Below, one piece after another: positions 2,095-55,018 of a stretch of DNA of 64,000 nt. A model generated the notes under the pieces. That model saw only the letters and a program-made list of their open reading frames with translations. It made no database searches and was not told where the DNA came from. The DNA comes from Escherichia coli. Its GTDB lineage: Bacteria > Pseudomonadota > Gammaproteobacteria > Enterobacterales > Enterobacteriaceae. The first letter of the stretch is position 1. Each line of letters opens with the position of its first letter. The stretch lies in NCBI RefSeq assembly GCF_003790525.1, contig NZ_CP033635.1; one strand, given 5' to 3'. The position numbers were made by a program, and so were the translations under genes.

Positions 2095-3159
2095 ATGGTA
2101 ACGTCCTGTACTGGACATGTTTTAGATAATCAACGCGCCACCACTCGCGGAGTTTTCTCCTCCGGTAGTCATCTCGTCACTTTGCATTTTCAACCTCATC
2201 CTTTCTTTTCATGTGTTACCGACGCCGCAAACGGTGTGCGTAGCCGTTTTTCGGCATTTTATCCAAAAGCAAACTATGGCTTACAAGGAAGCCAACCCTC
2301 TGATGTTCGTGCGCATAATCGCGCTGCCAACGGCGCGTGTGATGAATACAAACAACTCAAGGTGCTCTCCATGGGAAGACAAAAAGCAGTGATCAAAGCT
2401 CGTCGCGAGGCAAAACGTGTGCTGAGACGGGATTCGCGCAGCCATAAGCAGCGTGAAGAAGAATCGGTCACCTCGCTTGTGCAGATGAGCGGCGTAGAAG
2501 CCATTGGTATGGCCCGCGACAGTCGCGATACTTCGCCCATCCTCGCGCGAAATGAAGCGCAATTGCACTATCTGAAGGCTATTGAGAGTAAGCAGCTGAT
2601 ATTCGCCACGGGCGAAGCCGGGTGCGGAAAAACCTGGATCAGCGCAGCAAAAGCGGCAGAGGCCCTGATACATAAGGATGTCGACAGGATTATCGTCACC
2701 CGTCCAGTTCTGCAAGCCGATGAAGATCTTGGCTTCTTACCTGGTGATATCGCAGAAAAGTTTGCTCCCTATTTTCGCCCGGTCTACGATGTGCTGGTTC
2801 GGCGCTTAGGGGCTTCCTTTATGCAGTACTGCCTGCGACCAGAAATAGGGAAGGTGGAAATTGCGCCGTTCGCCTATATGCGTGGACGTACCTTTGAAAA
2901 TGCAGTCGTCATTCTTGACGAGGCGCAGAATGTGACTGCCGCGCAAATGAAAATGTTTTTAACCCGCCTCGGGGAGAACGTGACGGTTATCGTCAACGGT
3001 GATATCACGCAATGCGATTTGCCTCGCGGCGTGCGCTCCGGATTAAGTGACGCGCTGGAACGTTTCGAAGAAGATGAAATGGTCGGGATCGTCCGATTCG
3101 GTAAAGAGGATTGCGTACGTTCAGCACTTTGCCAACGTACGCTACATGCATACAGTTAA
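2095..3159 (+). CDS. phoH: PhoH, phosphate-starvation-inducible ATPase (PhoH/PhoL family)
   Basis: 354-aa ORF with Walker A GEAGCGKT; internal in-frame start at 2372 (MGRQKAVIKA...) could give a shorter product. Confidence 0.9.
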   Translation: MVTSCTGHVLDNQRATTRGVFSSGSHLVTLHFQPHPFFSCVTDAANGVRSRFSAFYPKANYGLQGSQPSDVRAHNRAANGACDEYKQLKVLSMGRQKAVIKARREAKRVLRRDSRSHKQREEESVTSLVQMSGVEAIGMARDSRDTSPILARNEAQLHYLKAIESKQLIFATGEAGCGKTWISAAKAAEALIHKDVDRIIVTRPVLQADEDLGFLPGDIAEKFAPYFRPVYDVLVRRLGASFMQYCLRPEIGKVEIAPFAYMRGRTFENAVVILDEAQNVTAAQMKMFLTRLGENVTVIVNGDITQCDLPRGVRSGLSDALERFEEDEMVGIVRFGKEDCVRSALCQRTLHAYS

Positions 3160-4499: not shown

Positions 4500-4587
4500 T
4501 GGCGGTGAGGGGGGGATTCGAACCCCCGATACGTTGCCGTATACACACTTTCCAGGCGTGCTCCTTCAGCCACTCGGACACCTCACC
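4500..4587 (-). tRNA. serX: tRNA-Ser (anticodon GGA), serX-like
   Basis: reverse complement reads GGTGAGGTGTCCGAGTGGCTGAAGGAGCACGCCTGGAAAGTG...GGTTCGAATCCCCCCCTCACCGCCA with long variable arm and CCA end; A-run on + strand 4462-4469 gives terminator on - strand. Confidence 0.9.
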
Positions 4588-10131: not shown

Positions 10132-10885
10132 GATGAAACCCCGCTTTTTTTATTGATCGCACACCTGACAGCTGCCTCTAAAATAGAAGCACCAGAAGTA
10201 CTGACAGATGTTGCACTGCTGTGTGTAGTAATAAATCAGCCCTAAATGGGTAAAATATAAAACTAATGGATTACATCTGATTTCAATCTAGCCATTACAA
10301 ATCTTAAATCAAGTGTTAAACATGTAACTAAATGTAACTCGTTATATTGAAATGTTAATCTTAAGGTTTTATTAAGTTTAGAAATGATAGAAAAGTTGTA
10401 CATTTAGTTTTTATTGCACAATTTTAAAAAATCATACAAATGGTGCTAACTTGCTAATAATGCATATAAAAAATATTTCGGTGTAGTCCTTTCGTCATGT
10501 AAAACGTTCTTGTTTTTTCTCTACACCTCCTTGGACAATTTTTTACTGCAAAAAGACGAGGTTTGTCACGGCTTGTGCGCAAGACATATCGCAGCAATCA
10601 GCGACGGGCAAGAAGAATGGCTGTCTGGTGATTTTTGATTGCGAAAAACGGAGATTTAAAAGAAAACAAAATATTTTTTTGCGTAGATAACAGCGTATTT
10701 ACGTGGGTTTTAATACTTTGGTATGAACAAAAAAAGAAAAATACAACGCGCGGGTGAGTTATTAAAAATATTTCCGCAGACATACTTTCCATCGTAACGC
10801 AGCGTTAACAAAATACAGGTTGCGTTAACAACCAAGTTGAAATGATTTAATTTCTTAAATGTACGACCAGGTCCAGGGTGACAAC
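10132..10885. promoter_or_regulatory. csgD-csgB divergent intergenic regulatory region (csgDEFG and csgBAC promoters, long csgD 5' UTR)
   Basis: about 750 bp non-coding, strongly AT-rich with A/T tracts, between divergently transcribed csgD and csgB. Confidence 0.8.
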
Positions 10886-16157: not shown

Positions 16158-20340
<4,183 letters not shown>

Positions 20341-20350
20341 AAACGTAGTT

Positions 20351-20450
20351 GCCTGATGCGCTACGCTTATCAGGCCTACATCGCTCCTGCAATGTATTGA
20401 TTTTGCAAGATTTTGTGGGTCGGATAAGGCGTTCACGCCACATCTGGCAA
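20351..20450. repeat. REP palindromic elements downstream of opgH
   Basis: gcctgatgcgctacgcttatcaggcctaca and ggataaggcgttcacgccacatc REP-like motifs. Confidence 0.65.
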
Positions 20451-20465
20451 AAACAACGAGCCAAT

Positions 20466-20497
20466 AAAAATACCGGCGTTATGCCGGTATTTTTTTA
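20466..20497 (+). terminator. rho-independent terminator
   Basis: hairpin taccggcgttatgccggta followed by T7. Confidence 0.65.
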
Positions 20498-20512
20498 CGG
20501 AAGAGGTATCAA

Positions 20513-20740
20513 ATGCGTTTAATTGTGGTGAGCATCATGGTGACCTTGCTGAGTGGCTGTGGCAGCATTATTAGTCGCACTATACCGGGGCAGGGGCATG
20601 GCAACCAATATTATCCCGGTGTGCAATGGGATGTGCGTGACTCCGCCTGGCGTTATGTCACGATCCTTGATCTGCCATTCTCCCTGGTTTTTGATACTTT
20701 ACTGCTGCCGATCGACATTCATCATGGCCCGTATGAGTAA
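20513..20740 (+). CDS. yceK: lipoprotein YceK
   Basis: 75-aa ORF with lipobox LLSGC. Confidence 0.85.
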   Translation: MRLIVVSIMVTLLSGCGSIISRTIPGQGHGNQYYPGVQWDVRDSAWRYVTILDLPFSLVFDTLLLPIDIHHGPYE

Positions 20741-21115
20741 TTAACGTTCATCCCACTCATCAGCTGCTGCGCGTCCTTCCTCGGTATCCAGCGGTGGCTC
20801 AAGCTGAAATTCCCCCTCGTCCCATTCATGTAATGTATTCTCTTCCTGCCACTCCTGGCGGATCTCTATCTCATCATAGTCGCCGTCAAAGACACTTTGC
20901 GCAGCTTCACCGCTAAGCATGGGTAAACATTCACCTTCTTCCCCTTCGTCGGCAAAAAACTCAACTTGCCACATGATGTCGCCGTCCTGCAAAACGTATT
21001 TTTGGGCATTGAACTGTTGCACATTCGCGTTTTCGGCGTCGATGCCGGGGTTGTCTGCAAGAAATTCTTCGCGTGCAGCGTCAATGGCTTCTTCAAGCGT
21101 TGCGTACATGGTCAT
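20741..21115 (-). CDS. msyB: acidic protein MsyB
   Basis: about 124-aa highly acidic (D/E-rich) ORF. Confidence 0.88.
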   Translation of the reverse strand: MTMYATLEEAIDAAREEFLADNPGIDAENANVQQFNAQKYVLQDGDIMWQVEFFADEGEEGECLPMLSGEAAQSVFDGDYDEIEIRQEWQEENTLHEWDEGEFQLEPPLDTEEGRAAADEWDER

Positions 21116-21197
21116 CACGATTCTCCCTTTGAGTTGATGAGGTTTCAGGGAAAAGGATAGCTGATTCTCCGCTTTTGCAAGTATGAAAGGCGAAAAA

Positions 21198-29544: not shown

Positions 29545-29649
29545 TAATCTCTATGCTCCGGCTGAAGGGATGTTTTTGCCGGACACAAAGGATAAGCGGA
29601 AACGTTTTCCTTTGCACGAAAAATAAAGGGCGCGAATGCGCCCTCGTGA

Positions 29650-52071: not shown

Positions 52072-52432
52072 CGTAACTTACTCATTATTCTTACATTGAC
52101 GACTAAGCTGCGGGCAAAGTAACGCCTTTCCGGGTGTGAACCGATGGCCTCGTGTCTAGTCGCGTCGCCAACCTCACGGTTATCGTCAGCTCAAAGAGGC
52201 GCAGAGTGTCGGTTGCCCGTTTTTCATGCGGAAAAACAGCGCAATTATCAAAGAAACAGACTGGGTATTACTCTCCAGAAATATTTCCATCTACCGGTAA
52301 GGACTGCAACCCGCAGCCCGCTAACTGCCTGAAAGATCAATACGTCTTACGCCATTGCTGCGTGGATGATCGGTCGGGCAAAATGGGTTATTCCGTAAAA
52401 TTTCTTGTTTTAACAAGGATGGACACGGAAAC
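52072..52432 (-). promoter_or_regulatory. rne 5' untranslated leader (autoregulatory) and promoter region
   Basis: long non-coding region upstream of rne start; extent assigned from established knowledge of the roughly 360-nt rne leader, not resolved from sequence. Confidence 0.55.
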
Positions 52433-53713: not shown

Positions 53714-54298
53714 CTATCCCATCAGCGGGTTTTTCCCTTCCCGACGTAACATCTGACACAGCGCGATTAGCGGTAAACCAACCAGCGTGTTAGGATCACG
53801 CCCCTCTAAACGCTCAAACAGCGTAATGCCAAATCCTTCACTCTTAAAGCTACCCGCGCAGTGCAGAGGATGCTCCTTACGCACGTAATTATCAATCTCC
53901 GCCTCGCTCAGGTGACGGAAATGGACGTCAAAAGGCTCCACTTCTGTTTGCAGATGCCCATTCGCCGAATTAAACAACGCCAGTCCAGTATAGAAGGTGA
54001 CGATATTGCCGCTGGCTTTGCGTAATTGCAGACGGGCATTTTCTTCCGTTAACGGTTTACCGGTGATTTCGCCATCAAGAACACATACCTGGTCTGAACC
54101 AATAATTAAATGATCCGGATAACGTGACGCCAGAGATTGCGCTTTTTCTTGTGCCAGTCGAAGCACCAACTGTCGCGGTGATTCGTCGCTGCGTGGGGTT
54201 TCGTCGACCTCTGGTGCTGCACATTCAAAAGAGATTTGCAGTTTTTCCAGAAGAGCGCGACGCCAGGGCGAAGTGGAGGCTAAAATAAGTTTAGGCAT
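53714..54298 (-). CDS. yceF: Maf-like nucleotide pyrophosphatase YceF
   Basis: 194-aa product from [20 protein letters not shown] (Maf family). Confidence 0.9.
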
Positions 54299-54339
54299 AT
54301 TTTTTTCCATCAGATATAGCGTATTGATGATAGCCATTT

Positions 54340-55018
<679 letters not shown>

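Follow-up and report, generated by a model that had tools for sequence, protein, structure and literature searches.

What ends transcription of the opgGH (mdoGH) operon of Escherichia coli, and what do the palindromes that lie at its 3' end add to that ending? At the ends of E. coli genes, REP/BIME elements and intrinsic terminators are textbook material, and a preliminary description of the spacer between opgH and yceK had proposed that both occur here: two REP-like palindromes followed by a strong hairpin with a run of seven T residues, which would close the opgGH operon just before yceK. We analysed this spacer in a window of 64,000 nucleotides (the whole stretch of E. coli DNA under study, from contig NZ_CP033635.1; coordinates below are those of the window) and compared it with complete E. 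coli genomes and with other Enterobacteriaceae.

The spacer between opgH and yceK

In the E. coli window the locus is the 172-nt spacer that separates opgH (mdoH) from yceK; both genes had been named rightly in the preliminary description, opgH ending at 20340 and yceK starting at 20513. The flanking landmarks are as follows.

20338-20340, + strand: stop codon TAA of opgH (mdoH) (ORF list; RefSeq annotation of identical or near-identical E. coli records)
20503-20515, + strand: Shine-Dalgarno sequence GAGG (20503-20506) and start codon ATG (20513-20515) of yceK, 16 nt past the T-run
20741-21118, - strand: msyB, tail to tail with yceK

Used as a query, the 451 nt that surround the feature are 100% identical to the chromosome of E. 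coli strain FDAARGOS_497, and the locus, always flanked by mdoH and yceK, is present with at least 80% coverage in 5,389 of 5,426 complete E. coli genomes, among which the element keeps 95-100% identity. Aligned with MG1655 (MG1655 coordinate = window coordinate + 1,093,066), the spacer differs from that of K-12 at six of its 172 positions. The RefSeq annotation of MG1655 records no REP in this spacer, a silence that is uninformative because REP325 likewise lacks a REP annotation; the number of annotated REP elements in K-12 is given as 355, and the opgH-yceK copy is expected to be among them.

The order of elements in the spacer is a Y-type REP, an L linker, an inverted Z-type REP, and a hairpin framed by A5 and T7. 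When the RNA of the whole spacer is folded (-58.8 kcal/mol, z -4.25), both REPs together form one long hairpin and the terminator hairpin stands separate. Folded individually, the REPs and the terminator reach z values of about -4, at most 2 of 200 shuffles being as good, and an inverted-repeat finder recovers the Y stem (7/7), the pairing of the Y and Z arms, and a 12/12 palindrome, AAAAATACCGGC/GCCGGTATTTTT, at the terminator.

Elsewhere in the window, the following Rfam matches score above the gathering score.

2961-3154, - strand: Ysr251
4503-4587, - strand: tRNA
10187-10278, - strand: ES056
29545-29594, - strand: PyrC leader
52096-52432, - strand: RNase E 5' UTR element
54292-54460, + strand: SraB

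The hairpin downstream of opgH

The part of the spacer adjacent to yceK contains three features.

20466-20470, + strand: A-tract (A5) adjoining the stem, a U-run when read on the minus strand (sequence, inverted-repeat finder)
20471-20489, + strand: terminator hairpin, stem TACCGGC (20471-20477), loop GTTAT (20478-20482), stem GCCGGTA (20483-20489) (fold, conservation, covariation)
20490-20496, + strand: T-run (T7), the U-tract (sequence, conservation)

The string taccggcgttatgccggtattttttt, which had been singled out as a strong hairpin with T7, lies at 20471-20496. It has the structure of an intrinsic terminator, with a 7-bp stem containing 5 G-C pairs and U7 directly after it, and the stability claimed for it is borne out, since the core folds at -11.2 to -11.8 kcal/mol (z -3.95) and none of 200 shuffles folds as well; with the A/U extension the fold reaches -16.0 kcal/mol. 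A simple terminator scan of the window did not list this plus-strand hairpin. Run on orthologous loci, the same scan detects the hairpin in Cedecea, where the A-tract is missing, and fails to detect it in two loci with an A-tract; the likely cause is that the stem extension pairs the A-tract with the T-run and so consumes the T-run.

The 3' end of opgH and its flanks were then compared in 80 species representatives of Enterobacteriaceae, in all of which yceK lies downstream of opgH. The hairpin and its T-run are present in 82 of the 82 loci examined, from about 20 genera. Of 81 orthologous loci, 69 have a T-run of exactly 7 nt adjoining the stem and none has one shorter than 5 nt; an A-run of at least 4 nt adjoins the stem in 60 of the 81. 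In the core helix 95% of the cells of the alignment are paired and four pairs covary, with a covariation score that none of 500 shuffles reached; compensatory changes replace an A-U pair by G-C in 11 sequences and a G-C pair by A-U in 5. The pattern by which the segments were picked accepted either base at each variable position independently, so that complementarity was not forced. Sliding the 3' pair partners along the alignment lowers pairing to about 40-55%, and RNAalifold, which was not supplied with the helix, predicts it as well. The loop varies freely among orthologous loci, the hairpin lies 11 to 67 nt ahead of yceK, and its distance from the opgH stop codon shifts with insertions; the hairpin and its U-run are constant. 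In an uncultured Buttiauxella (locus L065, positions 2236-2464) the terminator hairpin occurs twice, with about 115 nt between the copies and a palindrome, aaaatcaattcattgatttt, in the insert.

These results support the view that the hairpin and U7 are the ancestral intrinsic (Rho-independent) terminator of opgGH, the structure and its conservation being computed and termination being predicted from them. The terminator reading of the preliminary description thus gains strong support from the conservation and covariation across 80 species. Its further statement that the hairpin closes the opgGH operon was an extrapolation and has to be softened: some read-through past the hairpin is likely, because only 16 nt separate the T-run from the start of yceK and our scan for promoter-like sites detected none of the sigma-70 kind between 20000 and 21300 of the window. 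Published maps add little at this site. The supplement text of a 3'-end map (PMC7815308), in a possibly incomplete form, contains no entry for opgH, mdoH or yceK, for a corresponding b-number, or for K-12 positions 11134xx-11135xx, and that of a SMRT-Cappable-seq map of full-length operons (PMC6131387), also possibly incomplete, does not contain opgH, mdoH or yceK. Our literature search yielded no usable documented mdoGH terminator or yceK promoter, and it retrieved no transcript-end, half-life or IHF-binding data for the opgH-yceK site.

The palindromes upstream of the hairpin

The part of the spacer adjacent to opgH is occupied by the following elements.

20351-20379, + strand: Y-type REP in 'iREP' orientation, with a CTAC foot at 20376-20379 (exact string, inverted repeat, fold)
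20380-20414, no strand assigned: L linker of the BIME-1, 35 nt (match to Rfam RF02751; collinear with the dacB-obgE linker)
20390-20402, - strand: IHF core consensus WATCAANNNNTTR (AATCAATACATTG) (exact pattern match, inside the linker)
20415-20449, + strand: Z-type REP in 'REP' orientation, with a degenerate foot, GTGG instead of GTAG, at 20415-20418 (consensus, alignment, fold)

Both palindromes that had been called REP-like are REPs. The first, gcctgatgcgctacgcttatcaggcctaca, was found at 20351-20380. The second, ggataaggcgttcacgccacatc, is present at 20422-20444, but the preliminary description had quoted it incompletely: the full unit, which consists of the GTGG foot and GTCGGATAAGGCGTTCACGCCACATCTGGCA, extends from 20415 to 20449. 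A REP pattern search matches the Y string and the Z consensus (at most 3 mismatches allowed), with 0 matches expected from 100 shuffles of the window. The sole other REP-like match in the window is a Z-type fragment with 3 mismatches to the consensus, at 1843-1870 on the minus strand.

The Y REP begins 10 nt downstream of the opgH stop codon. Its stem pairs GCCTGAT (20351-20357) with ATCAGGC (20369-20375) at 7 of 7 positions, the palindrome having an internal mismatch, and it folds at -13.2 kcal/mol (z -3.95). It has the palindrome of a Y sequence, is extragenic, belongs to a family with many copies per genome, and carries CTAC as its foot, the REP foot being a conserved GTAG/CTAC tetranucleotide (PMC3333891). 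From 20351 to 20379 it is identical to the Y REP of the dacB-obgE BIME of MG1655.

The Z REP has 2 mismatches to the Z consensus, where 0 matches are expected by chance, and differs from its K-12 counterpart by two substitutions in the alignment to MG1655. Its fold is much better in the opgH-sense RNA (-15.0 kcal/mol, z -4.5) than in the antisense RNA (-9.0 kcal/mol), whereas a canonical-like Z sequence composed from other copies reaches about -21 (-20.9) kcal/mol on both strands. Two substitutions in the stem, one common to K-12 and one specific to the window strain, turn pairs into G.U wobbles when the RNA is opgH-sense and into C.A mismatches when it is antisense. That the structure has been retained in the mRNA is at most hinted at by this pattern, which involves two events only and would arise by accident about one time in four. 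The foot is GTGG in the window strain and in K-12, and GTAG is kept in Escherichia sp. E1V33 and in E. whittamii; since the transposase that acts on REPs requires GTAG, the Z arm of the opgH-yceK element is probably no longer a substrate of this enzyme.

The reverse complement of 20349-20451 is collinear with, and equal in length to, the Z-L-Y unit of the MG1655 dacB-obgE spacer, without gaps within the element. The spacer holds one Y, one L and one Z, hence a single unit and no tandem array; the arms are a Y and a Z-type REP in inverse orientation (the Z arm is typed here at the level of Z, the definition of BIME-1 calling for a Y and a Z1), and they enclose the conserved long linker with its IHF consensus. 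Judged from this alignment and from the linker, the two palindromes are the arms of a single BIME-1 (RIB/RIP), a unit that the preliminary description had missed. The family is dispersed: the 451-nt query finds a median of 17 places per genome with megablast, the 103-nt BIME at least 40 places per genome (E<=1e-8), and the 35-nt linker family consensus by itself a median of 12 places per E. coli genome. When the 45 nt from 20376 to 20420 (the linker and a few REP bases) served as a BLAST query (E<=1e-3), the orthologous locus alone was retrieved, owing to the low sensitivity of so short a query.

The IHF pattern has 6 matches in the 64 kb of the window against 2.3 expected, and one of them falls within the 35-nt linker. 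The consensus is perfect in the opgH-yceK linker and has one mismatch in the linker family consensus. On the strength of this match the linker is likely to be an IHF binding site on DNA.

Two further observations concern this element. A 15-nt inverted repeat with 87% complementarity (20397-20411/20442-20456) joins part of the L linker with the end of the Z REP and the A-rich spacer, and is probably due to chance. A BIME-1 copy with 79% identity over 97% of the 103-nt element lies on plasmid pMTY18781-2, between paeA and msrA (locus L084, positions 2501-2600); this plasmid carries a block of chromosomal genes from ytfJ to tamA.

A slot of variable content upstream of the hairpin

The segment between the opgH stop codon and the hairpin is only about 15 nt long in most Citrobacter, Kosakonia and other genera. 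Unrelated REP-type palindromes occupy it in Enterobacter, Citrobacter sedlakii, Leclercia, Superficieibacter and Buttiauxella noackiae, and a single Y-like REP is found there in Salmonella. The BIME occurs in this slot in Escherichia only, E. albertii having a degenerate copy. Within E. coli, about 10 complete genomes (pig and cattle isolates; e.g. NZ_CP075462.1) carry an alternative spacer allele of 160 nt (locus L006, positions 2251-2410), in which the Y REP is unchanged, the linker is 18 nt long and devoid of the IHF site, and the Z-like REP is a different one. In the genome labelled E. coli E69 the linker and the Z REP are present and the Y REP is missing; the set of complete genomes gave no match to this allele with both high identity and full coverage. 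The genus-specific REP palindromes were seen in loci L010, L022, L029-L037, L030, L039, L076, L077 and L079, at locus positions of about 2235-2350.

Because the slot is empty or filled with other REPs depending on the genus, and the hairpin is constant, this comparison indicates that the terminator is ancestral and that the BIME was inserted later, in the Escherichia lineage, between the stop codon and the terminator. It likewise indicates that REPs have landed repeatedly in the slot upstream of the terminator, which makes it a recurrent insertion site.

Proposed function of the 3' end module

We propose that the 3' end module of opgGH (mdoGH) combines an ancestral intrinsic terminator with a later BIME-1, and that both parts act on the opgH transcript or its DNA as described below; we give this reading a probability of about 0.85. 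The hairpin and U7 would release RNA polymerase at the end of opgH. Upstream of the terminator, the Y and Z REPs would fold in the opgH mRNA into hairpins of their own or, alternatively, into a single long one (about -39 kcal/mol). By analogy with REPs that have been studied, such structures may slow 3'-to-5' exonucleases and thereby protect the opgH mRNA, and they could add a partial, Rho-assisted block to read-through. On the DNA, IHF would bind the linker. In addition, the Y REP, which begins 10 nt past the stop codon, lies within the range reported for the stalling of terminating ribosomes by REPs: Liang, Rudd and Deutscher are said to have observed in 2015 that REPs within 15 nt of a stop codon stall terminating ribosomes and trigger trans-translation.

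Roles of REPs in 3' UTRs as terminators and as mRNA stabilisers have been described, together with the genome-wide observation that REP effects depend on context and that mRNA half-life is not uniformly lengthened (bioRxiv 10.64898/2026.03.23.713779). As REPs do not uniformly lengthen half-life, a stabilising role of the opgH REPs is an analogy. Other observations also speak against a function of the BIME, namely that most genera have no REP here, that about 10 E. coli genomes carry an allele without the IHF site, and that the Z REP is decayed.

These points lead to a competing explanation, to which we give somewhat less than even odds, in which only the hairpin and T7 matter and the BIME is a functionless, selfish repeat, spread by the REP-associated transposase, that became fixed in a permissive slot and is now decaying. 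Such a history would agree with a slot that most genera leave empty and others fill with unrelated REPs, with the existence of an alternative allele in about 10 E. coli genomes, with the loss from the Z REP of the GTAG foot that the transposase needs, with the weakening of the Z stem (-15.0 against -20.9 kcal/mol for the composed canonical-like Z), and with the absence of a uniform change of half-life by REPs genome-wide. It is less easily reconciled with the 95-100% identity kept in 5,389 of 5,426 genomes, although vertical descent alone could explain this, and with the IHF consensus, which is perfect here when the family consensus has one mismatch; that both stem substitutions spare pairing in the sense RNA through G.U wobbles is also against it, as a weak hint that accident would produce about once in four.

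Transcription of yceK and msyB

Returning to the module of terminator and BIME-1 that we favour, the position of yceK raises the question of how this gene is transcribed. Its start lies 16 nt past the T-run in the window and 11 nt past it in Enterobacter; lacking room for a promoter of its own after the T-run, yceK may depend on read-through of the terminator. In Buttiauxella, Cedecea and relatives (loci L059, L069, L075 and L077), but not in Escherichia, the segment that separates the terminator from yceK contains a conserved GTTATACTCAGCCGGAA-like stretch with TATACT, about 30-40 nt past the T-run. We considered whether other genera have a clear yceK promoter and rejected this, because the TATACT visible by eye in Buttiauxella, Cedecea and Citrobacter is not called as a promoter by the scan.

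On its other side yceK meets msyB. The stop codons of yceK (+) and msyB (-) adjoin at 20740/20741, and among the 80 Enterobacteriaceae examined (loci L004-L083) the gap between them is 0 nt in most species and 0-30 nt wherever msyB was found, which leaves no terminator between the two genes, so that they must be transcribed into each other. For MG1655, yceK-msyB is listed among the convergent excludons that occur in at least half (50%) of 58 transcriptomes (PMC12288877). Transcription leaving msyB on the minus strand would meet no terminator-like feature before the opgH-yceK hairpin; on that strand the hairpin folds at -16.2 kcal/mol and is followed by U5. Since the hairpin is flanked by both A5 and T7 and msyB adjoins yceK tail to tail, transcription from msyB that has passed through yceK in the antisense direction may also end at this hairpin. 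Across loci, conservation is lower for the A-tract than for the T-tract, which makes the evidence for termination on the minus strand the weaker of the two.

An extension of these ideas, which we offer tentatively and regard as rather unlikely, is that opgGH and msyB share one bidirectional terminator, that yceK is expressed through read-through only and is gated by antisense msyB transcription, and that in Escherichia the BIME-1 tunes the amount of read-through that reaches yceK. If true, Enterobacteriaceae would share a conserved 'embedded gene' arrangement of three genes.

We consider it improbable that the hairpin is mainly a leader element of yceK or a terminator of msyB, with opgGH and yceK forming a single read-through operon. 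The start of yceK 16 nt past the T-run with no promoter-like site nearby, the lack of any msyB terminator before the hairpin, and the presence of the A-tract in most species would all be expected in that case. However, conservation is far stronger for the plus-strand T-run (T7 in 69 of 81 loci) than for the A-tract, and a hairpin followed by U7 has the geometry of a canonical intrinsic terminator. The distance from hairpin to yceK start, which varies from 11 to 67 nt, is moreover unfit for a structure that acts on the yceK ribosome binding site, and for this reason a terminator of opgGH fits the hairpin better than a yceK leader structure does.

The match to ES036/CssrF

The minus strand of the spacer matches Rfam RF02751 (ES036/CssrF) at 20372-20414 with 49.9 bits, above the gathering score of 37.6, and CssrF gives a Northern band of about 290 nt in Shigella, where it lies between dacB and yhbZ (PMC3071730); yhbZ is obgE. 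The 43-nt model, as it turns out, consists of the L linker and the first REP bases, and is repeated many times per genome. The MG1655 dacB-obgE spacer, which corresponds to the CssrF site of Shigella, scores just 31.5 bits, so the model reflects the repeat family rather than a single gene. We thus read the match in the opgH-yceK spacer, from its sequence context, as the signal of a repeat family and not as evidence for a small-RNA gene specific to this locus. That the minus strand encodes an independent small RNA is extremely improbable, and we rejected it as the main explanation, because the matching segment is the linker of a dispersed repeat, neither strand has a promoter-like site, and the Shigella RNA is most simply a 3' UTR fragment protected by a REP.

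Relation to known elements

In kind, the element is already known: it is an ordinary gene end made of a REP/BIME and an intrinsic terminator. It shares with BIME-1 (also called RIB, 'reiterative ihf BIME', or RIP, 'repetitive IHF-binding palindromic') the inverse Y and Z REPs and the IHF linker of about 35 nt; like other BIME-1 it is single, extragenic and placed at the 3' end of a transcription unit, and it aligns base for base with the MG1655 dacB-obgE BIME. It departs from BIME-1 in the GTGG foot of its Z REP, in place of GTAG, and in the substitutions that create wobbles in this REP; its IHF site is predicted. The hairpin resembles intrinsic terminators, including bidirectional ones, in its G+C-rich 7-bp stem, short loop, U7, A5 and covariation. 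In contrast with canonical terminators, a gene on the same strand, yceK, begins only 16 nt past the U-tract, and the convergent gene, msyB, is a whole gene away.

The REP325 element in the yjdM-yjdN spacer, the source of naRNA4, is similar in that REPs lie in a 3' UTR between tandem genes, and it has been reported to act as a partial terminator and mRNA stabiliser (bioRxiv 10.64898/2026.03.23.713779). REP325 is a 12-unit tandem Z2/Y array of the BIME-2 type, devoid of an IHF linker and of an intrinsic terminator, whereas the opgH-yceK spacer has a single BIME-1 and a separate canonical terminator. The Z REP and terminator hairpin score 34.7 bits against naRNA4, below the gathering score of 59.5.

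The locus offers a clear natural case for telling apart an old, covarying terminator and a younger REP insertion. The slot upstream of the terminator, filled independently in several genera, is useful for studying where REPs land and what they add. Finally, the succession of opgH, terminator, yceK and msyB poses a testable question, that of how yceK, a small lipoprotein gene, gets transcribed.
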